Source: a virus (lineage: Duplodnaviria > Heunggongvirae > Uroviricota > Caudoviricetes). Taken from it: a DNA stretch of 64,000 bases. The translations under genes and the position numbers were made by a program. The notes below the pieces were generated by a model, which worked only from the letters and a program-made list of their open reading frames with translations, was not told the DNA's origin and made no database searches. This document shows positions 2,603 to 63,008 of this stretch, in pieces (within the stretch, counting starts at the first letter, position 1; every line of letters starts with the position of its first letter). The DNA lies in the IMG/VR virus record IMGVR_UViG_3300037466_000352; one strand, written 5' to 3'.

Positions 2603-2675
2603 GGGTTGATAGTTTATCTGGCTAAAACACCGGACTCCAAACCCGGAGTGCAAGGTTCAAGTCCTTGTCGGCCCG
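2603..2675 (+). tRNA. tRNA-Trp (anticodon CCA); a genomic CCA follows at 2676-2678
   Basis: Hand-folded cloverleaf. Acceptor GGGTTGA/TCGGCCC with two G-U pairs; D-stem GTTT/AAAC; T-arm CAAGG-TTCAAGT-CCTTG; anticodon loop CTCCAAA. The anticodon stem has one A:C mismatch. Confidence 0.65.
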
Positions 2676-2923
2676 CCAAGATCATTCACAACTGCCGCTT
2701 GATGGCTAAGGAACTATCGTGTAACACGATCTGTATCACCATAGACATTTGAGAACACAGAACAGCAGTACCATTTCCCGTTGGTGGTCGGGATATAGTA
2801 ACCGCCTTCGCCCTGCAACCTTAACGGGTCGCGAGAGAACACCACACGGAGAGACGCAAAAGTTCGTCGATAGTCCGTGCAGCACGCAGGCAACCTTGAT
2901 AAACCTGAAGAGAAGTAGAGAAG

Positions 2924-5913: not shown

Positions 5914-6056
5914 GTTGTTGACTTTGAGTTACGGGACACCGGGTGTTGTTGTACATAGTTGTTTCATATGTCTGCGCTGCGCGCATCTCGCTTCGCGAGA
6001 ACAACTTGTTCGTGGATTAGTAAATAACCATGAACCCCGAAAACCATTATACCAAG

Positions 6057-6084
6057 CTCCCAAAGTTGTGTCAAGCTAAATATT
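6057..6084 (+). promoter_or_regulatory. CTCCCAAAGTTGT box followed by AGCTAAATATT (putative late promoter of the 6114 gene)
   Basis: AGCTAAATATT is identical to the 11-mer upstream of the endolysin gene (52573). It lies about 31 nt upstream of the ATG. Confidence 0.5.
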
Positions 6085-6642: not shown

Positions 6643-7077
6643 ATGGATCAGAAAGTTAGCGGGCTTCCTCAAGCCACGTCAGTGATGGCGGCTGACAGCC
6701 TGATCCTGAACCAGAATGGAGTTACCAAGCGTATCGCCATTTCTGATTTCTATGGATCAGGAATCCCGGTCACAATCAACGCAAAAGGCGCTGTTCTCTT
6801 GGGTTCGACACCCGAGAACGTGTCTACTGGCGCTGTCTCACTGGCTGTTCTCCGAACGCACATCGATCTAACAGGCTCGCAAGCTATCACGATCCCAAAC
6901 GGCACTGATGGTCAAATAAAGGTCATCATCGCTGCAACGGGTACGGGTGGCGTCACGACCCTGACCGGTTCTTTGTACGCAAACACAATTCAGTTCTCCA
7001 AGGTTGGCGATACCGCAATGCTGCTATTCACTGGTGGTAAATGGGCGCTGATTGGCGGAACTGCTGCATCACTGTAA
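6643..7077 (+). CDS. Putative structural protein (beta-rich)
   Basis: 144 aa, immediately downstream of 6114..6635. Similar composition. Confidence 0.5.
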   Translation: MDQKVSGLPQATSVMAADSLILNQNGVTKRIAISDFYGSGIPVTINAKGAVLLGSTPENVSTGAVSLAVLRTHIDLTGSQAITIPNGTDGQIKVIIAATGTGGVTTLTGSLYANTIQFSKVGDTAMLLFTGGKWALIGGTAASL

Positions 7078-7080
7078 AGA

Positions 7081-7485
7081 ATGATTAAAGTCGATTTGAC
7101 CGAAGACAACTTCGAGTATTTCGCGATCAGGCACTACGATGACCCGAATTGTCAAGGACTGCAAGAATTCCGTGAGGATATGCAGCGGTTCAAGTACCTG
7201 AATCGACTCTTGAACAAGTACGAAGAGTGCGGCGAGATGCGTACCAACCTTGTGTTGAACCATATCGTCGTTCTCTACAATATCTTCAACGAGGCGGCAA
7301 CTAACATGCTGTTCTACCGCGTCGCTGAAAAACATTGGCCGATCTTGGTCCCATTCTTGATCTATATCAACCGACTTCCTTCAGACATCTATCTGTCGTC
7401 GAAGCGCTCGATCAAGGACAGTGATATTCCCATCGACATGCAAGTGGTCAAGATTCTCCGCGAATTCAACCGGCAAGGTTGCTAG
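7081..7485 (+). CDS. Hypothetical protein
   Basis: 134 aa ORF. Confidence 0.5.
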   Translation: MIKVDLTEDNFEYFAIRHYDDPNCQGLQEFREDMQRFKYLNRLLNKYEECGEMRTNLVLNHIVVLYNIFNEAATNMLFYRVAEKHWPILVPFLIYINRLPSDIYLSSKRSIKDSDIPIDMQVVKILREFNRQGC

Positions 7486-20591: not shown

Positions 20592-20993
20592 ATGGAAATG
20601 TTTCGCATCTGCATCGTCGGATCGTTCGGCAGTCACATCGAAGAAGTTCCATTCAAGGATCGAGATGAAGCCAGAACGTATGCAAAAACAACAGCAAAAG
20701 AGATGCAGGGCGTCTCGTATGGCTTGGTCAGTCTAGGCGAGGCCGTGTTGATGAAGGTCGAAGTCACTGACACGTTTGGTGGCGAAGCAAACTATTCATG
20801 GGTCGAACGGTACGAGCAGTGGATACCACGTAAGCTGACATCTCGCGCAAAGATTCGCACAGCGAAGCGCTTGGCTGGGTGGACGGGAATGCACTGCCAG
20901 AAGGACGACTTCGGCGATGCCTACACGCTTCATCCGCGCGGAATCTGTCAGGTCATGTTTGTGAATTTCGATTACGACCACGAAAACGGTTGA
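20592..20993 (+). CDS. Hypothetical protein
   Basis: Trimmed to ATG 20592 (MEMFRI...). Confidence 0.5.
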   Translation: MEMFRICIVGSFGSHIEEVPFKDRDEARTYAKTTAKEMQGVSYGLVSLGEAVLMKVEVTDTFGGEANYSWVERYEQWIPRKLTSRAKIRTAKRLAGWTGMHCQKDDFGDAYTLHPRGICQVMFVNFDYDHENG

Positions 20994-25247: not shown

Positions 25248-26783
25248 ATGACAACATGTCCACACTGCGACAGCGCACAAGTGCAAAGTCGCGGGACCAA
25301 AACGAATCAAGCGGGGATTACACGTAAGCGGTATCAGTGTATGGACTGCACCAAGTGGTTCAGCCATACCGTCGAACCAGTTGTACAGACGCAATCGAAG
25401 CATGACCGGTTTTCTTCAAAGATGCCGGATGACTTCAAGCGGTACAACAAGTTCGTGATTAGCGCCGTGCAGAACGACACACCTGTGAACGACGAATTCT
25501 TGTTCACGCTTCAATCGTACTGCCGAATGAATCACGCCAAGTTGATCCTGGTCCCGATCAAGTACAAGTACACGCAAGAATCGACGTTTGATGTTGATGA
25601 AGAATTGTTGTACACACGTGATGTTCTGATTGCCAACAAGCTTCGGTTGTTGGCGAACGTGCAGATCACTCCGACCATCGAAACACCACTTGCAGGACTT
25701 GATTATCTGTCGAAGGGAAACAGTCTGATTATCGCGCACCCACAGGTGCAGATGCGGACTATCGCGACGCTAGACAATCACCCGGCGCAACTTCATACCA
25801 CTGGCGCTATCACTTATGCCAACTACGCAGAAACCAAGACAGGCGAAAAGGCTCGGTTCAACCATTCACTCTCTGCACTTGTCGTTGAAAAAGACGGCGA
25901 TCAGTTCTACACTCGCCTTCTCAATTGCGACGACAGCAACGGATTTTACGACATCGACGGCTACTACATGGCCGACGCATTTCGTCCCGGTGCAGAAGTC
26001 GAAGCCCTGATTACAGGCGACGAACACGCTATGTTCGTCGATCCGAAGGTGAAGGCAGCGACGTACACAAGTGACGATTCTATCGTCAATGTACTTCGAC
26101 CAAAGAAGATTGTTCGTCATGACGTGCTGGACTTCTTCAGCGGTTCGCACCATCACCAGAACAGCTTCTTGCTTCAGTATGCCAAGCACAAGACGGCGAC
26201 GAACGATGTCGAGCGTGAACTAGACATCACGATTGAACACATCGCAAACACGACGCCGTTTGGTGTAGAGAACATCATGGTTGCTTCGAATCACGTCGAG
26301 CACATGAATAAGTGGCTGGACTCGATTGATCCGAAGCAAGAGGTATGGAATGCGAAGCTGTACTACCGCATGATGTACTTGATGCTGGAACACATCGACA
26401 AGCATGGCGTCGATATTCCGAACGCGTTCCAGTTGTGGGTCGAGAATACCGAACACTACTTCGATGCACCGATGCCGAAACTTCACTGGCTTGGTCGCAA
26501 CGAATCGTACAAGATTCAAGGTATCGAACTATCGAACCACGGTGACATGGGTTCTAATGGCGCACGTGGTAGTCCCACACAGTTCAGCCGGTTGCCAGAC
26601 AAGATGGTTGTTGGTCACTCGCACTCGCCGTCGATCATGAAGGGCTGCTACACGGTCGGTACATCGACTGGTCGTCTGGAATACACGCGCGGTCCTTCAT
26701 CATGGGCGAACACGCACTGCGTGATCTATGCGAACGGCAAGCGCCAGATGATTACAATTATCAACGGTCGTTGGAAACGGTGA
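25248..26783 (+). CDS. Hypothetical 511-aa protein with an N-terminal IS1/IS1595-type C4 zinc ribbon
   Basis: CPHCDS...QCMDC in the first 40 aa. No DDE motif recognised in the rest. Confidence 0.6.
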   Translation: MTTCPHCDSAQVQSRGTKTNQAGITRKRYQCMDCTKWFSHTVEPVVQTQSKHDRFSSKMPDDFKRYNKFVISAVQNDTPVNDEFLFTLQSYCRMNHAKLILVPIKYKYTQESTFDVDEELLYTRDVLIANKLRLLANVQITPTIETPLAGLDYLSKGNSLIIAHPQVQMRTIATLDNHPAQLHTTGAITYANYAETKTGEKARFNHSLSALVVEKDGDQFYTRLLNCDDSNGFYDIDGYYMADAFRPGAEVEALITGDEHAMFVDPKVKAATYTSDDSIVNVLRPKKIVRHDVLDFFSGSHHHQNSFLLQYAKHKTATNDVERELDITIEHIANTTPFGVENIMVASNHVEHMNKWLDSIDPKQEVWNAKLYYRMMYLMLEHIDKHGVDIPNAFQLWVENTEHYFDAPMPKLHWLGRNESYKIQGIELSNHGDMGSNGARGSPTQFSRLPDKMVVGHSHSPSIMKGCYTVGTSTGRLEYTRGPSSWANTHCVIYANGKRQMITIINGRWKR

Positions 26784-26968
26784 ATCTGACAACAGAAGAA
26801 AAGGCGATCATCGAAAAGCTGGCGGATGCGTTCAACTACTTCGTAGAGTTGGAGAACAAACATCCGTCAGATGTAGGCGAATTCGCACACCACATCCACA
26901 TCCTTCAGCGGCATGTAATGGCACGTCTTGCACGACGCTGTAACCCAGACATATTTCCGCCAAGATGA
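26780..26968 (+). CDS. Hypothetical small protein (uncertain start)
   Basis: Track ORF 26702..26968. A GTG start overlapping the stop is possible. Confidence 0.3.
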   Translation: MNLTTEEKAIIEKLADAFNYFVELENKHPSDVGEFAHHIHILQRHVMARLARRCNPDIFPPR

Positions 26969-27696
26969 CGATCCTATCCCTCAAAGAGTTCAAGACCGGC
27001 CTCGAATACCACGACACGTTGAACCCGGCGCTTTGGAACGGCGACGAACTGAAGCCCGAAGTCTATGCGAAGTTGATGAACGTCGCGAACGACTTCATCG
27101 CTTTCTGTGGCATCGATCCGACCAAGGTGTCAGACATCGTAATGACAGGTAGTAGTGCGAACTACAACTACAGCCCGCAGTCCGACATCGACCTACATGT
27201 GATCGCGGTGTATGAACCCGATCACATGAACGAAGCGGGTATCAGTGTGCAGAATGCGTTCAATGCGTTCAAGACGCTGTACAACGAGTCGAGGCATATC
27301 TCGATCTATGGTTTCCCGTTGGAACTGTACGTGCAACCGACGAGCGAACACTTCACGTCCAACGCGGGCGTGTATTCACTAGAGAAAGAGTCATGGGTTC
27401 AGAGGCCAGTTAAGCAGCACGTCGATCTTGATGATCGAGAGATTGAACTGAAGGCCCAGGCAGTCATACACGAAATCAAACAGATCGTGCATGGCAAGAT
27501 GGCTGGCGTACTCGCAAGGCCAAGGATCGATGCTGTGAAAGCAAAGATTCGGCAATTGCGAGCGGCAGGATTGGAAGCCGGTGGTGAGTTCGGAATCGAG
27601 AACCTTGCGTTCAAGGCAATCCGAAATTCCGGCTATCTGGACAAGCTATCGAAATATGCGAGCGCAGTAAAGGATTCTACGCTGTCGCTTTCATGA
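26965..27696 (+). CDS. Pol-beta-superfamily nucleotidyltransferase-fold protein
   Basis: 243 aa. TGSSANYNYSPQSDIDLHVI (GS-x10-SDID) motif. Confidence 0.6.
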   Translation: MTILSLKEFKTGLEYHDTLNPALWNGDELKPEVYAKLMNVANDFIAFCGIDPTKVSDIVMTGSSANYNYSPQSDIDLHVIAVYEPDHMNEAGISVQNAFNAFKTLYNESRHISIYGFPLELYVQPTSEHFTSNAGVYSLEKESWVQRPVKQHVDLDDREIELKAQAVIHEIKQIVHGKMAGVLARPRIDAVKAKIRQLRAAGLEAGGEFGIENLAFKAIRNSGYLDKLSKYASAVKDSTLSLS

Positions 27697-28189
27697 GTTC
27701 ACTACGTTTTCCTTCGTAGTGAACAGGAACGTCATGGTGGTTCAACACAACTGCCATGCCTCTATTGACGTATCCGCTGTACCCATGATCGACCACGGCG
27801 CGTTCGAATGCGTTGCCGTGGTCTTCTCCGTTGTAGACGTGCTTCGCAGCCGTCTCACGAACTTCTTTGGCATGTTCCTGTGAAGCAGTATCCGGGTTGT
27901 ACATGTTGTGCAGCTTCGCGCTGTACGTGTGTTGCCCAAGTCCCGATTCGTGGACCTTCGATACCTTTTCGCCTTCGTTGGCGTGGTAGAAGTAGACACG
28001 ACTCTTGATGCGTGCGTCCTTCGTCTCCGACAGGCGTTTCGCTTCAGCACCCTTGATTCCCGTCCCATAAATCCGACCGTCGAGACTGGTCAACCCTTCC
28101 TTGTGCGAATAGTGCAGGCCGTGGATCGTCTCGCCCTTGACCGGCGCTGCGACCTCGCGCTCGGTGATGAACTGTTTGAATGATTGCAT
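27677..28189 (-). CDS. Hypothetical protein on the minus strand (putative late gene)
   Basis: 170 aa. Convergent with the NTase gene, overlapping it by about 20 nt. On the minus strand CTAAATAAT lies about 28 nt upstream of its ATG. Confidence 0.55.
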   Translation of the reverse strand: MQSFKQFITEREVAAPVKGETIHGLHYSHKEGLTSLDGRIYGTGIKGAEAKRLSETKDARIKSRVYFYHANEGEKVSKVHESGLGQHTYSAKLHNMYNPDTASQEHAKEVRETAAKHVYNGEDHGNAFERAVVDHGYSGYVNRGMAVVLNHHDVPVHYEGKRSELMKATA

Positions 28190-28227
28190 TGACTGTTCCC
28201 AATGTTGATGGTATTATTTAGACTCAT
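28189..28227. promoter_or_regulatory. Divergent promoter region: + strand TTGACT-N17-TATTAT, and minus-strand CTAAATAAT late-type motif on the same AT tract
   Basis: TTGACTGTTCCCAATGTTGATGGTATTATTTAGAC. Its reverse complement contains CTAAATAATA. Confidence 0.5.
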
Positions 28228-28248: not shown

Positions 28249-28524
28249 ATGCACCGACAATTCATTCTTTCCGATGTGGGTTCCGACGCACTTGGTAATA
28301 CCAAGACGTGGGTCACGGTCGAAGACACGCTTCGTCCTCTTGGCGGCGTGTGTGTGACTATTTCGACGACCTACAACAAGGCGCGAAAGCCCGAACAACA
28401 CGTGTCCAAGCTGCGTCTGGTCATCGAAGATCGGGCCAAGCTGGCGGAACTCGCGGCCTTCCTGCTGGGTTGCGCCGTATCGACCGAGGGTGTTCCCATT
28501 GACAACATTCCCAAACTTGGGTAA
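28249..28524 (+). CDS. Hypothetical protein
   Basis: 91 aa ORF downstream of the promoter. Confidence 0.45.
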   Translation: MHRQFILSDVGSDALGNTKTWVTVEDTLRPLGGVCVTISTTYNKARKPEQHVSKLRLVIEDRAKLAELAAFLLGCAVSTEGVPIDNIPKLG

Positions 28525-28554: not shown

Positions 28555-28776
28555 ATGAGAACAGAAGACATGCTGGACCTGCGCGAAGGTATGAAGGTGA
28601 TCGTCTCGCCCGCTGCTGGTCTGGCAACTCGCCCGATCCGGGCGCAAGTACGCGGCATTGCGACATCGCCACTACCGGTGATCGGTCGAAACGTCATCGT
28701 CGAACCGGAAGTCAAGATTGGCGGCTTTTCGTGTCATCCGGCCTTCGAAATCCATCTCGCACCGGTCAACGAATGA
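28555..28776 (+). CDS. Hypothetical protein
   Basis: 73 aa ORF. Confidence 0.45.
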   Translation: MRTEDMLDLREGMKVIVSPAAGLATRPIRAQVRGIATSPLPVIGRNVIVEPEVKIGGFSCHPAFEIHLAPVNE

Positions 28777-29291
28777 ACTCAGTTGTTTGTATGCCGCCAC
28801 TGCGCCGATGGAAGAAGGCTGGTGTAGTTGAACGTTCGGTGTTCCTGGCGGGGACTATCGAGATGGGGCAGTCGTGGGACTGGCAATCAGAGATGATCGA
28901 GACGATCAAGGATCGAGCGTCAGTCATCTACAACCCTCGGCGAGCGGAATGGGACGCCACGTGGGAACAGTCGATGATGTCGGTGCCGTTCAATAACCAA
29001 GTGAATTGGGAATTGGACTTCATCGAGTACGCTGACCGGGTGTTGATGTACCTTGACCCCAATTCCAAGTCACCCATTTCTTTGCTGGAATTGGGGTTTC
29101 TTGCTGGCGCTGCACCTGATAAGCTATGGGTGTGCTGTCCCGATGGCTTCTGGCGAAAGGGCAACGTGGAAGTCGTTTGTAATCGCTACGACATCCCGTT
29201 GTATGAATCATTCAAGGTCTTCAAGGAAGCGGCCCGCTGCGACCTGGAACGAGCCTACGACATCTACAAGACCAAAAAGGTGACAGAATGA
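28773..29291 (+). CDS. Nucleoside 2-deoxyribosyltransferase-like protein
   Basis: Trimmed to ATG 28773. VFLAGTIEMG...LELGFLAG motifs. Confidence 0.65.
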   Translation: MNSVVCMPPLRRWKKAGVVERSVFLAGTIEMGQSWDWQSEMIETIKDRASVIYNPRRAEWDATWEQSMMSVPFNNQVNWELDFIEYADRVLMYLDPNSKSPISLLELGFLAGAAPDKLWVCCPDGFWRKGNVEVVCNRYDIPLYESFKVFKEAARCDLERAYDIYKTKKVTE

Positions 29292-29755
29292 AGAAAGGCG
29301 AAGCACTATCAAAAATGCTCAAAATCTGCGTCGAGAAGTTCGATGGGATTTTCGACAAGTCGGGCCAACCGTATATCCTTCATCTTCTGAAGGTGATGCA
29401 CTACTGCAAGACGGATGACGAAGAGATTCAGTGCATCGCCATCGGCCACGACTTCATCGAGGACATCTTCGCAGATGACCACATTGCCGGTTACGCGTAC
29501 CTTCGTCGAGAGGGTTTCTCGGAACGCATCATCAACGGCATCCGCAACATGACCAAGGTTCCGGGCGAAGACGAGAACGATTACATCATCCGCGTGTCGT
29601 CATCCAAGGATTCGACCATCGTCAAGCTGGCTGACCTTCGTCACAATTCCGACATCCGCCGTCTGAAGGGACTTCGCGAGAAGGACTTCGAGCGTATGCA
29701 GAAGTACCATCGCATGTACCTTCGTCTGACACAGGCATTGGAGATGTACCGGTGA
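29288..29755 (+). CDS. HD-domain phosphohydrolase
   Basis: 155 aa. H..H...HD.IED pattern (LHLLKVMHY...IGHDFIEDI). Confidence 0.65.
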   Translation: MKKGEALSKMLKICVEKFDGIFDKSGQPYILHLLKVMHYCKTDDEEIQCIAIGHDFIEDIFADDHIAGYAYLRREGFSERIINGIRNMTKVPGEDENDYIIRVSSSKDSTIVKLADLRHNSDIRRLKGLREKDFERMQKYHRMYLRLTQALEMYR

Positions 29756-29970
29756 AGTACTTATTCGGCTTCTGGGTGTCAGTATGCGTGCTGATTATTG
29801 CGTTCGCGATCTATGAAAAGGTCGAGCACCAACGATTCCTTGAACAACACGGATGCCAGATGTACTTTGACGCTTACACCGGTCACGACTATATTTCAGG
29901 AAAAGTCGTCTATCACGAACACGTCCGTGTCTACGAATGTGCCGATGGTCGTCGGACAGAACTGCAATAG
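29752..29970 (+). CDS. Hypothetical small membrane protein
   Basis: 72 aa. N-terminal TM. Confidence 0.4.
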   Translation: MKYLFGFWVSVCVLIIAFAIYEKVEHQRFLEQHGCQMYFDAYTGHDYISGKVVYHEHVRVYECADGRRTELQ

Positions 29971-36952: not shown

Positions 36953-37327
36953 ATGAGTGCGGAAGAAGAGAAGAAAGTCAGCAACACGAAGCTGGTAGTC
37001 ATTGACACCAAGACTCTCGTCGCTAAGTCGTTCGAAGGAAATTTCCCATGTGGCGAAGCCCACTTGCCGAACCCGAACGGCGAAGACGAGTACACGGCTG
37101 TCGAAATCACGGAACAGTTGAACGACTTCCTGAAAGCTGCTGACGGCGCTCGATACCGCGCTATTGCCGAAGCCGACAAGAAGGCCGCAATCGGAAAGAA
37201 GCTGGTTGAACTGACCAACGAATACGAAGGTTGGTTTGATCGTCTGGTTCCCGAAGAAGAATTCGATTCGTTCGGTTTTTTGAAAGCAACAAAACAGGTA
37301 GATAGTGAAGATGTCAAAACAATATGA
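36953..37327 (+). CDS. Hypothetical protein
   Basis: 124 aa ORF. Confidence 0.5.
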   Translation: MSAEEEKKVSNTKLVVIDTKTLVAKSFEGNFPCGEAHLPNPNGEDEYTAVEITEQLNDFLKAADGARYRAIAEADKKAAIGKKLVELTNEYEGWFDRLVPEEEFDSFGFLKATKQVDSEDVKTI

Positions 37328-38402
37328 TGTGGTGGTGTATCGCGGTCGGTTCCAAGGTTTCCATAACGCGCACCTTCAAACGATCCTCATGGGACTGAAG
37401 CTGGCGAAGAAAGTCATCATTGTGATTGGTAGTGCGAACGAACCGCGCACCTACTATCGCAATCCGTTCTTTGAGAACGAACGAATCGAGATGATTCGTG
37501 GCGCACTCGAAGAGCACTTCCGTCATGAAGACGTTTCGTTCGTATCTGTCGAAGATCACCCCGACGACGAACATTGGGCGTTCATGGTTCGCAAGGCAGT
37601 TCACGATCACATTCGACATGTATTGGATATCAAAGACCCATACGTGGCGCAGATCGGTTACAAGAAGGACGAGAATTGCGTACGCGATGTTTCACTCTTT
37701 CCGACGTGGGAATACGTCAATACGCCTCAATTCGAACCGCTCGACGCGACACAAGTCCGCGACATCTTCTTCAGCAAGCGTCCGTTGGGATTCCTTCGTG
37801 GCGTGTGTCCTGAATCTGTCATCCAATACCTGAAGGGTTTCCGCACAACGGAAGACTTCGCGAACATGATGGCTGAAAAGGAATACTGCGACAAATACAA
37901 GAAGCAGTTCGAACATCTCGAATATGCTCCCACGTTTGTCACTGGCGACAATATCGCATTCCAAGACGATACGGTGTTGCTGGTCAAGCGCAAGAACTTT
38001 CCCGGTAAGGGTCTGTGGGCGTGGCCTGCTGGCTTCTTCAATGCCGCTGATCGGGTGTCGAAAAGTGGTGAAATCGTGAAGGCCGACAAGTCTGTTTTCG
38101 ATTGCGCAGTTCGCGAACTCAGTGAAGAGACTAATGCCGGTGTCACGAAGGAACAGCTTCAAGAAGCACTGGTCGGCGAACAAATATTTGACGCAGAAGG
38201 CCGCGATCCGCGTGGACGAATCGTCACACATGCGTTCGTCTATAACTTCGACGACCAAGAAGTGTTCGCAGTCGAAGCCGCCGACGACGCGGAAGAAGTT
38301 CGACGCTTCCATATCTCGGAAGTGAATCGCCGCATGATGTACGCCGATCACTACAACATGTTCCTGCTGGCGCTCGATGCGTACTGCGACTCCAAGTTTT
38401 AA
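37305..38402 (+). CDS. nadM: Bifunctional NMN adenylyltransferase / Nudix ADP-ribose pyrophosphatase (NadM-Nudix)
   Basis: N-terminal GRFQGFHNAH (HxGH). C-terminal Nudix box REL-EETNAG. Confidence 0.85.
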   Translation: MKMSKQYDVVVYRGRFQGFHNAHLQTILMGLKLAKKVIIVIGSANEPRTYYRNPFFENERIEMIRGALEEHFRHEDVSFVSVEDHPDDEHWAFMVRKAVHDHIRHVLDIKDPYVAQIGYKKDENCVRDVSLFPTWEYVNTPQFEPLDATQVRDIFFSKRPLGFLRGVCPESVIQYLKGFRTTEDFANMMAEKEYCDKYKKQFEHLEYAPTFVTGDNIAFQDDTVLLVKRKNFPGKGLWAWPAGFFNAADRVSKSGEIVKADKSVFDCAVRELSEETNAGVTKEQLQEALVGEQIFDAEGRDPRGRIVTHAFVYNFDDQEVFAVEAADDAEEVRRFHISEVNRRMMYADHYNMFLLALDAYCDSKF

Positions 38403-38414
38403 GCCAACCACTAC

Positions 38415-39785
38415 ATGATGAACAACATAAACATCAACATTGCACTAGAACAAAACTTCATCCTCGAATCTGACTCGTACAAGTTCAGCCACATTCCCGA
38501 AATCTACCCCGAAGGCGCTGAAGCCCTGCACTCGTATCTGTCGGCCCGCGTGAAGGGTCAACGTGTGGTCCAGTTCGGCCTTCAGATGTGGATCAAGAAG
38601 AAGCTGTTGGCCCCGATCACCCGCGAGATGGTGGACGAAGCTGAAGACTTCATCAACAAGCACATCGGCCCGAACGCGTTCAACCGTCCTTTCTGGGAAC
38701 ACATCCTGAAGAAGTATGGCGGGTTCATTCCGCTGACTATCCGTGGTCTTCCCGAAGGCACGGTCACGAACAGCTACGACACGCTGATTACGGTCGAATG
38801 CGATGACCCGGTGGTGTTTCCGCTGGCGCAACACATCGAAGCTTCGCTGCAATCGGACATGTGGTACAGCACGACCATTGCGACCAACGACCTCGAAAAC
38901 TATGAAGTCGCCAAATCGCACTTCGACCTGTATTCGGACCAACCGTTCCTTCTGCCGTTCATGCTTCACGACTTCGGCGCACGTGGTGTGACCTGTGAAG
39001 AACAACGCCAGATTGGCGGTGCTGCGCACTTGCTGTTCTTCCAAGGTTCGGACACGATCAGCGGCATCCGTGCAGCGAATCTGTTCTATGGTTGCGAAAT
39101 GGCCGCGTATTCGGTTCGTGCCACGGAACATAGCATCCAGTGCGCCTACGGCCCGGAAGCCCAAGAAGCGTACATCTCGCGCGTTCTGACCGCACATGCG
39201 AAACCGGGCAACATCGTGTCGCTGGTGCTGGACGGATACAACGTCTGGCGCGAGTCAGAATTGCTGTGTACGAAGTTCAAGCAACAGATCATCGACAGTG
39301 GTGCGAAGATCGTATTCCGACCTGACTCGGGTGACATGTTCGAAGTGATTCCGCGTCTGCTGGAAATGCAAGCTAACGCGTTCGGCTTCACGGTCAACTC
39401 GAAGGGCAAGAAGGTCATCAACAACGTCGGCGTGATCCAAGGGGACGGTATCGATAAGACGACCTTCATGCTGCTGATGCAAAAGGTCGTGGCCCTCGGC
39501 TATGCCCCAGAATGCGTCGTGATGGGTTCCGGTGGCGGTCTTTTGCAGAAGTGCAACCGCGATACCCTGAAGTTCGCACAGAAGGCCGCAGCGGTCAAGA
39601 TCAACGGTCAGTGGGTTTCGATCTTCAAAGACCCGATCACCGATCCGGGTAAGAAGTCGAAGACCGGCATCCAAGATGATCCGCGATTCATCACGTTCTA
39701 CAACGTCGATGATGGTCTGCTGGTGGACGAATCGTTCGACGTGATCCGCGAACGTGCGTTGGCTGGCGCAGTGATCCGCAAATAA
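38415..39785 (+). CDS. nadV: Nicotinamide phosphoribosyltransferase (NAMPT/NadV)
   Basis: 456 aa. N-terminal DSYKFSH. Typical NAMPT length and motifs. Confidence 0.9.
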   Translation: MMNNININIALEQNFILESDSYKFSHIPEIYPEGAEALHSYLSARVKGQRVVQFGLQMWIKKKLLAPITREMVDEAEDFINKHIGPNAFNRPFWEHILKKYGGFIPLTIRGLPEGTVTNSYDTLITVECDDPVVFPLAQHIEASLQSDMWYSTTIATNDLENYEVAKSHFDLYSDQPFLLPFMLHDFGARGVTCEEQRQIGGAAHLLFFQGSDTISGIRAANLFYGCEMAAYSVRATEHSIQCAYGPEAQEAYISRVLTAHAKPGNIVSLVLDGYNVWRESELLCTKFKQQIIDSGAKIVFRPDSGDMFEVIPRLLEMQANAFGFTVNSKGKKVINNVGVIQGDGIDKTTFMLLMQKVVALGYAPECVVMGSGGGLLQKCNRDTLKFAQKAAAVKINGQWVSIFKDPITDPGKKSKTGIQDDPRFITFYNVDDGLLVDESFDVIRERALAGAVIRK

Positions 39786-51412: not shown

Positions 51413-51420
51413 CTATGACA

Positions 51421-51457
51421 GGAAGTGCTAAATAATTTTGTGATGTTTAGCACTTCC
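51421..51457 (+). promoter_or_regulatory. 12-bp perfect-stem hairpin (GGAAGTGCTAAA...TTTAGCACTTCC) containing a GCTAAATAAT late-type motif
   Basis: No T-run follows. The motif lies about 40 nt upstream of the FmdB ATG. Confidence 0.45.
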
Positions 51458-53132: not shown

Positions 53133-54410
53133 ATGTCAAAGAATTTTTGGCAGATGCGTTCGCAGCTTGACGCCCTGAAGCTGGTCACTGAGGCATTGAC
53201 CTCGGTCGATAAGGGCGATCATCTCGAAATCACGCCGTCACACATGAAGAAGCCGATGTACAAGGGCACGGCTATCGAGCATCGCAACAACCCGGAACAC
53301 TACGGCGCAGATGGTCATGCTGCACTCGATGCACATGTACGCGAAGTCGTGAAGAATCCCGAAAAGAACCAAGCGTTCAAATCGGCAGACAGCTACACGA
53401 AGGAAAACCTCGGCCACGGATACGAGTTCCATGACGACAAGCCGAAGTCATCGCTGCGCAAACAGTATGTGATCGGCAAGACATACGACCTCGCTACGCA
53501 GAATCACCCTGCATACAAGAAGGCCGTCTTTGAGGGCTATGCGAAGCATCGTCCTGACATCGTGAAGCAGACCAAGGCAACGGATTACGACTCATTGGTA
53601 CAGGGTTCGTACAAGCACGTCGCCAAGGAAACCAACAAACAGTTCGAACATCTGCCGGTCAAGACGCAGTTCCACGACGGCCACATGGGCTATCACAACA
53701 GCGGCGAGATGATGCGTGACATTCATGGTCACAATAACCTCACGGTCTATCGTGGTGGAGAAGAGCACGAATTCCTGCATCACAAGGACAAGACCGGTCT
53801 GAATGAGAACGAGAAGTTCCGTGCAGTCCACGACTACTATGGTCACGCGATCCACGGCAACCAGTTCGGCCCGAAGGGCGAAGAAGTGGCGTGGCATTCG
53901 CACCGCAAGATGTTCTCGCATGGTGCAGCAGTTGCAATGACATCCGAGACACGCGGCCAAAACAGCTACGTGAACTACACGCACGCGAACCTCGGCACCC
54001 AGAAAGAGATGGAAACGCATCGTGCAGCCAAGCGTGCATCGCTGAATGCGGGCGATCATGAAGGTGCAGCGAAGGCCGATGAACACCTTCGTGAAGCTGG
54101 TGGCAAGTGGAACTATGCGAAGCAAGCTTCGGTCGCACTGCCACACGAAATGCTGCATCCTCACTTCGACGGTCACGCACCATCGAGCATTGCACACATG
54201 CTGCACGATCCGGCTGCGAAAGAGAATCCGACATATGATGCACACAAGGATCATCTCGGCCTCGTAGACCTCGCACGTCACCACAACACGTCCTCACACA
54301 CGCACATGGGCGGTGGTGTTCTTGACCGCGAGAATGCACATGCGGACCTGAAGCACATTGCCGGTGTCCACGGATACACGAAACTCTCTCACAACCCCTT
54401 CAAGGGATAA
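53133..54410 (+). CDS. His-rich hypothetical protein (425 aa)
   Basis: About 11% His. Repetitive HxxH/HGH segments similar in style to 46256..47134. Confidence 0.55.
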   Translation: MSKNFWQMRSQLDALKLVTEALTSVDKGDHLEITPSHMKKPMYKGTAIEHRNNPEHYGADGHAALDAHVREVVKNPEKNQAFKSADSYTKENLGHGYEFHDDKPKSSLRKQYVIGKTYDLATQNHPAYKKAVFEGYAKHRPDIVKQTKATDYDSLVQGSYKHVAKETNKQFEHLPVKTQFHDGHMGYHNSGEMMRDIHGHNNLTVYRGGEEHEFLHHKDKTGLNENEKFRAVHDYYGHAIHGNQFGPKGEEVAWHSHRKMFSHGAAVAMTSETRGQNSYVNYTHANLGTQKEMETHRAAKRASLNAGDHEGAAKADEHLREAGGKWNYAKQASVALPHEMLHPHFDGHAPSSIAHMLHDPAAKENPTYDAHKDHLGLVDLARHHNTSSHTHMGGGVLDRENAHADLKHIAGVHGYTKLSHNPFKG

Positions 54411-56849: not shown

Positions 56850-57344
56850 ATGCTTTCATTCAAAGAATTCCTGCAAGAGAAGTACGGTACGACCGGAACC
56901 TATGCAGCCCTGAAGTTCGATCAACCGTCCACGGATGACATCGAAGCTTATCAGGCACACAACAAGATTCCGAACCCGGTCCCAGCGGACAAGCTACACG
57001 TAACATTGCTGTATTCGCGTAGACACATGGCCGGGTTCAAACCGCGCGGGCGACTAGAATCGCTCATAAAGGCTCGCGTCGCCGGGTTCGATGTCTGGGA
57101 TACCCAAGACGGAAAGAAGGCACTGGTGGCCCGTTTGGACGCCCCGGAACTCGTTGCACGCCATCGCGAACTGATGGACAAGTACAACGGGACTTACGAT
57201 TTCCCAGAATACAAGCCGCACACCACGTTGTCATATGATGTCGGCCCAGATTTCGATCACCAGAACCTTCCTCCATTTGGTCCTGTCCTCACGCTCGACA
57301 ACGAGTTCGGTGAAGACCTCGACCTCGATTGGAAGGCTGATTGA
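56850..57344 (+). CDS. 2H phosphoesterase-superfamily protein (LigT / 2',3'-cyclic phosphodiesterase-like)
   Basis: Two H-x-T-x motifs (HVTLLY and HTTLSY) about 80 aa apart. Confidence 0.65.
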   Translation: MLSFKEFLQEKYGTTGTYAALKFDQPSTDDIEAYQAHNKIPNPVPADKLHVTLLYSRRHMAGFKPRGRLESLIKARVAGFDVWDTQDGKKALVARLDAPELVARHRELMDKYNGTYDFPEYKPHTTLSYDVGPDFDHQNLPPFGPVLTLDNEFGEDLDLDWKAD

Positions 57345-62964: not shown

Positions 62965-63008
62965 TCGACTATTTAGTTGTTGACACGCATTCCCAACCTT
63001 GGTAATAT
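62965..63008. promoter_or_regulatory. Divergent region: minus-strand CTAAATAG late-type motif (62969-62976) and + strand conserved promoter TTGACA-N17-TAATAT (62980-63008)
   Basis: GTTGACACGCATTCCCAACCTTGGTAATAT, followed by CATCGACA and RBS aggagg. Confidence 0.6.

Follow-up and report, generated by a model that had tools for sequence, protein, structure and literature searches.

Genes and promoters of the locus

At the locus described here, two genes meet tail to tail within a 64,000-nt stretch of phage DNA (the window) whose homologues of gp32, gp59, RNase H and the baseplate hub give it a T4-like gene content. No near-identical DNA was found in cultured phages, and in Rfam and tRNA scans of the window a tRNA-Trp at 2603 was the sole match. 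The plus-strand gene (26965..27696, 243 aa) encodes a nucleotidyltransferase (NTase) that has its NTase domain at the N-terminus, followed by a helical domain at the C-terminus. It ends a rightward, presumably early, gene run that also includes genes for RNase H, a phosphoesterase, a DUF6433 protein and a T5-A1-like protein. The stop codon of a small ORF immediately upstream (26702..26968, +; phrog_13916 match at residues 28-86) overlaps the NTase start (ATGA), and the two genes may be translationally coupled; in relatives this small ORF is called as a 64-aa version. The minus-strand gene (27677..28189, 170 aa) encodes a protein of the ADP-ribosyltransferase (ART) fold with candidate NAD-site residues H26, S28, Y66/Y68 and E81 or E129. 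That both frames are genuine genes, as assumed in an earlier sequence-only reading of this DNA, is borne out by many homologues of each and by codon-usage scores of 0.33 and 0.34 for the NTase and ART ORFs, the level of confident genes. All other minus-strand ORFs tested from ~8 to 60 kb score 0.07 or less, so the ART gene is the only convincing minus-strand gene in the region; the same reading had called it the sole one in 25 kb, and this is true over a far longer distance.

The start of the ART gene adjoins an AT tract that carries promoter-like elements on both strands. On the plus strand, a sigma-70-type early promoter, TTGACT-N17-(TG)TATTAT (28189..28217), touches the ART start codon with its -35 hexamer and would drive the rightward genes from 28249, the first of which (28249..28524, +, 91 aa, codon score 0.25) is kept in relatives. 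This promoter is a member of a plus-strand family, at least 10 strong, whose spacers share an ATTCCCA element, and it is conserved in three related lineages (L001, L004 and L005). On the minus strand, the late-type motif that had been pointed out for the ART gene is indeed present as CTAAATAAT at 28213..28221; its late-promoter-like core CTAAATA (28215..28221) ends 25 nt before the ATG. The tract is common to both elements, as had also been proposed, since the -10 hexamer overlaps the CTAAATA complement by 3 nt, and this arrangement is kept in four lineages.

Several observations point to CTAAATA as a late promoter. There are two copies of CTAAATAAT in the window, against 0.11 expected, and for 5 of the 10 occurrences of the core an ATG follows at a distance of 25-31 nt; among them are those before the genes for the baseplate hub (62944, -) and the endolysin (52608, +), whereas by our own estimate, not computed by a tool, a random site would be so placed ~0.5% of the time. 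Among 12 distinct stand-alone ART homologues bearing the N-terminal leader discussed below, 11 have CTAAATA or, more generally, [A/C]TAAATA 23-36 nt upstream. CTAAATA is a documented late-promoter variant or consensus of the T4-like phage Aeh1 (PMC1524935); the canonical T4 late box, TATAAATA, is absent from the window. In an otherwise plus-strand 60 kb, the ART gene is oriented as the baseplate genes are. Judged by the motif, the ART gene would thus be a late gene with a CTAAATA promoter of the gp55 type, and the NTase and ART genes seem to differ in timing, the first early and the second late. The shared AT tract would then form a compact divergent pair of an early (+) and a late (-) promoter, each used at its own time, which makes the locus a clean case of sigma-70-type and gp55-type promoters on opposite strands of one tract.

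The two proteins and their families

The NTase carries the GS-SDIDLH signature that had been noticed in it, with a spacer of 9 residues and not the 10 originally given: G62-S63-x9-S73-D74-I-D76-L-H78 (27148..27198, +). The third acidic residue is likely E120 (27322..27324), judging from conservation. In an alignment of 45 homologues, G62, S73, D74, D76 and H78 are invariant and S63 and E120 nearly so, and E119 (the equivalent of E120 in the first sequence of that alignment) is invariant in 64 further homologues. The hG[GS]-x9-13-Dh[DE]h motif, the later third acidic residue and the alpha-beta-alpha-beta-alpha-beta fold are those of the Pol-beta nucleotidyltransferase superfamily. The earlier statement that the protein has no recognisable partner domain is right only in part: residues ~157-240 form a conserved C-terminal helical domain with invariant R199, G207, E208, K217 and R220. 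The protein is best read from its sequence as a catalytically intact Pol-beta-superfamily enzyme, putatively built like the aminoglycoside ANT enzymes. With AAD(9), AadA and ANT(4') (KNTase-like) it shares a length of ~250 aa, the two-domain build and Glu as the third acidic residue (Foldseek E 2e-3 to 2e-2); however, the TM-scores, 0.24-0.29, are low, no match appears at the level of sequence, and the phage context lends no support to an antibiotic substrate. A strict regular expression found no second Pol-beta-type NTase motif in the window. What the sequence-only reading implied as a "first" NTase may correspond to the NMNAT-like cytidylyltransferase encoded at 37305..38402.

The NTase was also compared with known systems built on such enzymes. 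Its top Foldseek match is CdnE (E 4e-4, but TM 0.23), and across ANT and CD-NTase enzymes the TM-scores of Foldseek matches reach only 0.23-0.29; the third acidic residue of the NTase is Glu, PADLOC gave no CD-NTase match, and there is no effector gene nearby. An AbiE (AbiEi/AbiEii) system was rejected, with no match in Pfam, NCBIfam or PADLOC and just weak PDC-S09 matches (E 2e-3). Indeed, NCBIfam and PADLOC returned nothing significant for either the NTase or the ART protein. Sequence and profile searches of the PDB gave only marginal matches (E ~0.03-0.04), to DrrA and an MNT; the nearest sequence-profile relatives among solved structures are thus the protein AMPylase DrrA and the putative minimal (MNT-type) NTase 2rff. 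Compared with MntA, the NTase here is twice as long and has the extra conserved helical domain. The locus is also not a type VII HEPN-MNT system: it has no HEPN partner, the neighbouring gene is convergent and not in an operon with the NTase, and the NCBIfam MntA score is 13.4 bits against a cut-off of 60.

The NTase family is large (5,816 clusters at 50% identity) and occurs in cyanophages, Lak megaphages and pelagic myophages. Its surroundings give little away: across 80 loci there is no conserved neighbour (the best cluster occurs in 13), the neighbours are heterogeneous (WYL_2, glutaredoxin, AdoMet decarboxylase, ClpB-like and other proteins), and fusion partners, considered as a clue to the substrate, are too diverse to point to one. 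We suppose that early in infection the enzyme would use an NTP to place an NMP on a hydroxyl group of its acceptor. As the acceptor we slightly favour a host protein (AMPylation, as by MntA or DrrA), ahead of small molecules and RNA ends. The family may rank among the largest groups of phage enzymes that have no substrate assigned.

For the minus-strand gene, the sequence-only reading had suggested looking for a HEPN, MNT or AbiE partner of the NTase. The 170-aa product is like none of these; it is an ADP-ribosyltransferase-fold enzyme, with the split beta-sheet fold of that superfamily. The broader guess that such a partner belongs to the world of conflict and anti-defence proved right nonetheless, by virtue of the ART fold. 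Its top structural match is the protein ART AcrIF11 (PDB 6KYF, 8DWQ), with which sequence and profile searches of the PDB detect no similarity; with the 170-aa protein these searches gave no match at all. Pfam, including all 23 ART-family members, gave nothing either, and PF18760 (ART-PolyVal) did not match even at E up to 1. ARTs have a catalytic triad of the H-Y-E or R-S-E type in the canonical strands; as candidates for the NAD site here, H26, S28, Y66/Y68, E81 and E129 are conserved among homologues, and this H-x-S, Y, E pattern resembles H20, S22, Y46 and D146/E147 of AcrIF11Pae2, mutants of which have shown that the H/Y and D/E pairs are required and the S22/E25 pair is dispensable.

Besides transferases, NAD+ phosphorylases and NADases (MbcT, RES) are among the nearest relatives by structure. 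The protein might instead degrade NAD+ or ADP-ribosylate nucleic acids rather than proteins. We consider this unlikely, given that a protein ART is the top match and the H-x-S/Y pattern is similar. Moreover, the window also encodes NAMPT and NMNAT-Nudix proteins (NAD+ supply), and such a salvage pathway would be a poor fit with an injected NAD+-depleting enzyme. RES-domain toxins (Xre-RES, MbcT) are recognised by R-E-S residues and an adjacent Xre/MbcA-type antitoxin; the protein was rejected as one of them, and it has no RES-type Pfam match.

In most of its relatives, the 170-aa protein corresponds to one domain of a giant polyvalent protein, delivered by the virion, of a smaller phage. The ORFs that contain the domain in 50 of 80 loci have a median length of 2,639 aa and also carry ART-PolyVal and LPD38 domains, and in Limnohabitans phage DC33 it is part of a CDS of ~3,125 aa. 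In these proteins the domain often stands directly N-terminal of ART-PolyVal (PF18760; Iyer et al. 2017) and yet is separate from it; membership in PF18760 was rejected by hhalign against the ART-PolyVal domains of the same giant proteins (probability 1.3%). Here, in contrast, it is a stand-alone gene of a T4-like myophage, and homologues in two other T4-like contigs (L008 and L009) have other gene contexts. The family, which lies outside Pfam, therefore bridges the giant polyvalent proteins of small phages and stand-alone, leader-bearing late genes of T4-like phages.

The junction and the linkage of the two genes

The NTase and ART coding sequences overlap at their 3' ends by exactly 20 nt (27677..27696, both strands), in agreement with the ~20 nt first reported, and the overlap is the same in the P0065 lineage. 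Directly after the NTase stop, within the ART codons for VHYEGKRSEL, lies a perfect 10-bp inverted repeat, GTTCACTACG-N8-CGTAGTGAAC (27697..27724, both strands), and the RNA of 27670..27740 folds at -22.9 kcal/mol. The junction differs among relatives. In L001, L004 and L005 the genes do not overlap and a spacer of 44-52 nt contains a strong, terminator-like hairpin; the intergenic hairpins of relatives measure 13-17 bp, and the surrounding 86-91-nt segments fold at -27 to -32 kcal/mol. In L017 the overlap is 17 nt. In the syntenic L016 and L018 the NTase is absent and the ART gene is kept, overlapping the next convergent gene by 4 nt. The 10-bp repeat is possibly a remnant or a replacement of the relatives' intergenic hairpin. 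A role as a conserved terminator was rejected, the repeat not being kept in L011, the closest overlapping lineage.

Convergent overlap had been taken as a sign of antisense interplay. This could mean that late transcription to the left shuts down the NTase mRNA, or that the ART gene is repressed by rightward read-through early in infection. The 20-nt overlap itself favours this, as does the lack of a canonical intrinsic terminator on the minus strand between 26500 and 29000, owing to which late transcripts could run into the NTase gene. However, an antisense mechanism is difficult to reconcile with a junction that changes from one relative to another and with an ART gene that in L016 and L018 overlaps a different gene altogether. 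No Rfam family matches at the locus, and early and late classes would already be apart in time. Regulation by antisense RNA is therefore, in our view, highly unlikely, and the overlap is more readily pictured as a packing accident of a variable junction.

Even less probable, to the point of being hardly tenable, is a two-component module of the kind also suggested before, be it toxin and antidote or enzyme and regulator, with, for example, the NTase silencing the ART protein by nucleotidylation, as MntA does HepT. The idea has its attractions: the two genes are adjacent in five of the seven lineages examined in this phage clade, so that an interaction specific to the clade is conceivable, ART-fold toxins (MbcT, RES, ParT, DarT) normally come with antidotes, and an AMPylase and an MNT-type protein are the closest solved profile relatives of the NTase. 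Nevertheless, L016 and L018, with an ART gene and no NTase, largely refute it. The genes are convergent, lack co-transcription and have promoters of different types, while the MntA score falls far below its cut-off and the partner is not a HEPN protein. Nor are the families found together elsewhere. Within viral contigs, an ART gene lies within 10 kb of the NTase at only 1 of 80 more distant NTase loci (79 without), and an NTase within 10 kb of the ART gene at 3 of 80 ART loci (77 without); this co-occurrence is confined to close relatives, and none of 45 cultured-phage records with the NTase has the ART protein. The locus is thus best read as two unrelated accessory genes, tail to tail, of a ~173-kb uncultivated T4-like myophage. 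Seen this way, what looked like a coupled NTase-partner locus becomes ordinary: two unlinked genes colliding at a variable junction.

The leader of the ART protein and its predicted packaging

The ART protein begins with MQSFKQFITE (28160..28189, -), a leader that may target it to the capsid and that offers an I-x-E site to the prohead protease. The leader of T4 internal proteins is MKTYQEFIAE (PMC8442874); gp21 cuts C-terminal to Glu, and the T4 internal head proteins are all reported to associate with the prohead core via the capsid-targeting sequence. MQSFKQFITE|RE resembles the T4 leader and, by sequence, would combine capsid targeting with the Glu site of T4-type internal proteins, although the match spans only 10 residues. 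The pattern M..F..F[ILV].E is kept in stand-alone ART homologues, and the leader of L016 and L018, MKTFRSFLAE, is identical to that of T4 at 6 of 10 positions. In contrast, the leader is missing from the copies embedded in giant proteins, where matches begin at about residue 20, and residues 1-19 have low pLDDT in the predicted structure.

On these grounds it is probable that the ART protein travels inside the phage head and enters the host by injection. It would be made late, enter the prohead core and be clipped after E10 by a gp21-type prohead protease. No gene for such a protease lies within the window; from the T4-like gene content we infer that this phage has one. The clipped protein would stay in the head, go in with the DNA at infection and, ahead of phage gene expression, use host NAD+ to ADP-ribosylate some component of host defence or transcription. 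Such a route has a precedent in T4 Alt and the internal proteins: made late, they are directed to the prohead core, cut by gp21 behind a Glu and injected, so that they are the first to act in the next host, and Alt is itself an ART. There are also differences. The domain here resembles the diphtheria-toxin/AcrIF11/RES side of the superfamily and is probably not of the Alt/VIP2 type (R-S-E); packaging is predicted here; and the gene lies in an early-gene region and not in an internal-protein cluster. The leader is the only thing that T4 internal proteins have in common, and it is this leader that the ART protein resembles. As for AcrIF11, we know of no capsid-targeting leader and no evidence of packaging.

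A late protein need not be packaged, and the ART protein might instead act in the producing cell, modifying host or phage proteins or taking part in superinfection exclusion. The late-promoter evidence suits this equally, and part of the leader motif is not specific, because T4-type Acb1, which is no known head protein, shares M..FK.F. On the other hand, the full leader with its [ILV]-x-E site is kept only in stand-alone copies, and the embedded copies belong to polyvalent proteins that the literature predicts to be injected. We regard an unpackaged ART protein as somewhat unlikely, and on balance lean towards a late, head-packaged and injected ART effector that adjoins an independent early Pol-beta NTase gene. 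Head-packaged ARTs are a recognised theme (PMC9503650), and the gene provides a specific case, other than Alt, in which the packaging of an enzymatic effector in the head can be put to the test.

A wider and more tentative idea, which we put forward as a conjecture, is that freshwater phages of the T4-like kind carry, already loaded in the capsid, stand-alone enzymes that counter host defence. These would be drawn from the polyvalent repertoire, with a leader of the T4 internal-protein type redirecting them to the head. These effectors, of which the ART protein would be one, might ADP-ribosylate a host immune protein or degrade cyclic nucleotides before phage genes are expressed. The signature M..F..F[ILV].E after [A/C]TAAATA could serve for mining injected effectors of uncultivated T4-like phages. 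Some genomes also encode an Acb1 anti-CBASS nuclease with a similar leader, which in L008 may be co-transcribed; reading that leader as a capsid-targeting sequence is weakened by a control, the start MMEFKDFSTG of T4-type Acb1.

Convergent genes and their promoters

The two convergent ORFs, at 26965..27696 (plus strand, 243 aa) and 27677..28189 (minus strand, 170 aa), are real genes. They overlap by 20 nt, in agreement with the roughly 20-nt 3' overlap described in the sequence-only reading. Both have numerous homologues, and their codon usage scores 0.33 and 0.34, respectively, on a measure trained with 21 confident genes from the window. All other tested minus-strand ORFs between about 8 and 60 kb score 0.07 or less, and their plus-strand counterparts are positive. 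The 170-aa gene is therefore the sole convincing minus-strand gene, over far more than the 25 kb originally proposed.

The late-type motif postulated before this gene, CTAAATAAT, is located at 28213..28221 (minus strand) and occurs twice in the window against 0.11 copies expected. Read by eye, the second copy lies within an inverted repeat, GGAAGTGCTAAA...TTTAGCACTTCC (51416..51450, plus strand), downstream of the DNA ligase gene, and resembles a terminator hairpin rather than a promoter. The canonical T4 late box TATAAATA does not occur in the window. CTAAATA, the late-promoter consensus published for the T4-like phage Aeh1 (PMC1524935), occurs ten times, and five of these sites lie 25-31 nt upstream of an ATG that opens a long ORF with a Shine-Dalgarno sequence, a spacing for which we estimate a chance of about 0.5% for a random site. 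The ORFs so preceded include the baseplate hub (62944, minus strand), the endolysin (52608, plus strand) and the 170-aa gene.

On the opposite strand, a sigma-70-type promoter (TTGACT-17-TATTAT with an upstream TG; 28189..28217, plus strand) is one of a family of ten or more plus-strand promoters that share a conserved spacer element (TTGACA-N4-ATTCCCA-N5-6-TGnTAnnAT; for example at 20990, 28189, 28499, 35618, 40246, 47219, 47853, 48299 and 62980), and is for this reason taken as a genuine early promoter; minus-strand matches to the family are far fewer and poorer. The idea of a shared divergent promoter gains support from the presence and conservation of both elements, which are kept in three more distant lineages (the late element being ATAAATA in contig L004). 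The preferred reading is an early promoter and a late one, each active at its own time. Back-to-back pairs of a sigma-70-type promoter and CTAAATA are also found at the baseplate hub gene (62970..63008; early on the plus strand, late on the minus) and, on opposite strands, upstream of the 6114 ORF (6046..6082).

Genome context and linkage of the two genes

The window encodes replication and structural genes of T4 type: DnaB/gp41-like helicase, RNase H, gp59-like helicase loader, gp32, DNA ligase, ribonucleotide reductase, ThyX, PhoH, endolysin and a baseplate hub. It has a single tRNA gene, tRNA-Trp (CCA; 2603..2678, plus strand). Its gp32 matched 2,452 phage records, mostly T4-like coliphages and cyanomyophages, the best (45-48% identity) being T4-like cyanophages and Methylophilales phage Melnitz. 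A DNA-level search of cultured phages returned no close relative; the relatives of the window are metagenomic contigs of 128-177 kb.

Comparison of these relatives bears directly on whether the 243-aa nucleotidyltransferase (NTase) and the 170-aa ADP-ribosyltransferase (ART)-fold protein work together. The 20-nt overlap recurs in L011-L015 and is 17 nt in L017. In L001, L004 and L005, the two genes are instead separated by 44-52 nt that include a hairpin of 13-17 bp, the surrounding 86-91-nt segments folding at -27 to -32 kcal/mol. In L016 and L018, the NTase is absent and the ART gene overlaps the T5-A1-like (511-aa) gene by 4 nt. The window has its own 10-bp hairpin (27697..27724), which falls within the ART coding sequence; the closest lineage with an overlap does not retain it. 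With a junction this variable, the suggested antisense interplay is unsupported. The proposal of a toxin-antitoxin-like module of NTase and partner fares no better: besides the two contigs devoid of the NTase, an NTase occurs within 10 kb at only 3 of 80 ART loci and an ART gene at 1 of 80 NTase loci, all of them close relatives of the window, and the ART protein is missing from all 45 phage records that carry the NTase. In other T4-like contigs, ART homologues adjoin other genes, namely head genes and Acb1 in L008, and ribonucleotide reductase and an HNH gene in L009. Thus, there is no obligate pairing and the overlap is not conserved; a functional pair is not supported, the two families not travelling together beyond the window's clade.

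The 511-aa gene (25248..26783, plus strand; phrog_1745 'DNA transfer protein', E 3e-124), directly upstream of the NTase, is kept in all relatives. Its product has a zinc ribbon at the N-terminus as well as histidine-rich motifs that, judged by eye, resemble those of a metallophosphoesterase. The Nuc_deoxyri_tr2 gene of the window (28731..29291) has no counterpart in the syntenic IMG/VR contigs L016-L018 (about 168 kb), and neither do its small ORFs at 28555..28776 and 29752..29970; together with the absence of the NTase from L016 and L018, this marks the stretch as a variable accessory region.

An independent nucleotidyltransferase

The first reading's sequence observation holds as a whole, except that the NTase motif, though present, has a spacer of nine residues and not ten (GS-x9-SDIDLH). 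In 45 homologues, G62, S73, D74, D76 and H78 never vary, and S63 and E120 hardly do. The protein matches phrog_36119 (function unknown; E 1.3e-51) and barely grazes Pfam NTP_transf_2. Its AF2 model (pLDDT 89.3) comprises an NTase domain and a helical domain (residues 157-240); at domain level, the structural matches are MNT-type minimal NTases. Full-length Foldseek matches are CdnE, AAD(9)/AadA/ANT(4') and CdnB/C (E 4e-4 to 2e-2), with TM scores of just 0.23-0.29, and the sole hits of a profile search of PDB sequences were DrrA (E 0.028) and an MNT (E 0.042).

The family is very large and uncharacterised: 5,816 clusters (50% identity, E up to 1e-3), 2,960 of them below 1e-30, at least 588 relatives among viral contigs, and members in 45 phage records, including cyanophages, Lak megaphages, and Maribacter and Caulobacter phages. 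They occur singly, as tandem duplicates or as fusions to a wide variety of domains (Amidoligase_2, dCMP deaminase, GNAT, SLT+LysM, NUDIX, 2H, ParB), and no conserved neighbour was found. We infer an independent, early-expressed Pol-beta-type O-nucleotidylyltransferase, whose acceptor would be a host protein, a small molecule or an RNA end.

A putative virion-delivered ART-fold effector

The 170-aa protein has no match in Pfam, PHROG, NCBIfam, PADLOC or PDB sequences. Its invariant residues are H26, S28, R52, R64, Y68, E81-G83-L84-G85, N126 and E129, with Y66 nearly so; the H-x-S plus Tyr pattern recalls H20, S22 and Y46 of AcrIF11Pae2 (PMC11383003). It has at least 241 relatives in viral contigs. 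Among the best 80 loci, 50 have the domain as part of longer ORFs (median 2,639 aa), which are polyvalent proteins bearing Pfam ART-PolyVal and LPD38, and in Limnohabitans phage DC33 it likewise forms part of a CDS of roughly 3,125 aa. Such proteins are predicted to be virion-borne and injected (PMC5512222, PMC9503650). In the giant ORFs (L025-L084), the domain usually lies just N-terminal of ART-PolyVal (residues 1835-1995, then 2019-2178 in L031), to which hhalign found it unrelated (probability 1.3%); where this order holds, a tandem of two ART folds results whose sequences show no detectable relation.

Stand-alone copies, found in T4-like contigs, have about 19 extra N-terminal residues of low pLDDT that embedded copies lack. 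This leader has the conserved form M-x-[ST]-F-x-x-F-[ILV]-x-E (MQSFKQFITE in the window, MKTFRSFLAE in L016 and L018, MITFKQFLTE in L008). The capsid-targeting sequence of T4 internal proteins is MKTYQEFIAE, which the prohead protease removes by cutting after Glu (PMC8442874, PMC3012670, PMC5694885). Eleven of the 12 distinct leader-bearing starts have [A/C]TAAATA 23-36 nt upstream, including those of the distant contigs L008, L009 and L020. These sequence features suggest that the ART-fold protein would be made late, targeted to the prohead core, cleaved after E10 and injected, although the window itself contains no gene for a prohead protease.

An Acb1 anti-CBASS homologue (56850..57344, plus strand; PF23474, E 4e-38, residues 15-163) has an additional N-terminal MLSFKEFLQE resembling both the ART leader and the T4 sequence, and in L008 the gene next after the ART homologue is an Acb1 gene (6714..7253; leader MLTFRQYIIE) with an ATAAATA motif ahead of it. 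Since the control, T4-type Acb1, begins MMEFKDFSTG, the first half of the leader motif is not unique and Acb1 packaging is only a weak idea. The 170-aa protein itself is probably a late ART-fold effector, packaged in the head and injected, of a family outside Pfam that adds a member to the known class of virion-delivered phage ARTs.

A 425-aa protein encoded downstream of the endolysin (53133..54410, plus strand) contains a phrog_3170 segment common to polyvalent proteins, which in L031 (residues 1738-1796) sits just N-terminal of the ART-like domain, hinting that this phage has several polyvalent-protein modules as genes of their own. The phage also encodes an NAD+ salvage pair (37305..39785, plus strand), relevant as an NAD+ supply to an ART: an NMNAT-like cytidylyltransferase fused to NUDIX (37305..38402) and NAMPT (38415..39785). 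The former may be the first NTase-fold gene implied by the sequence-only reading.
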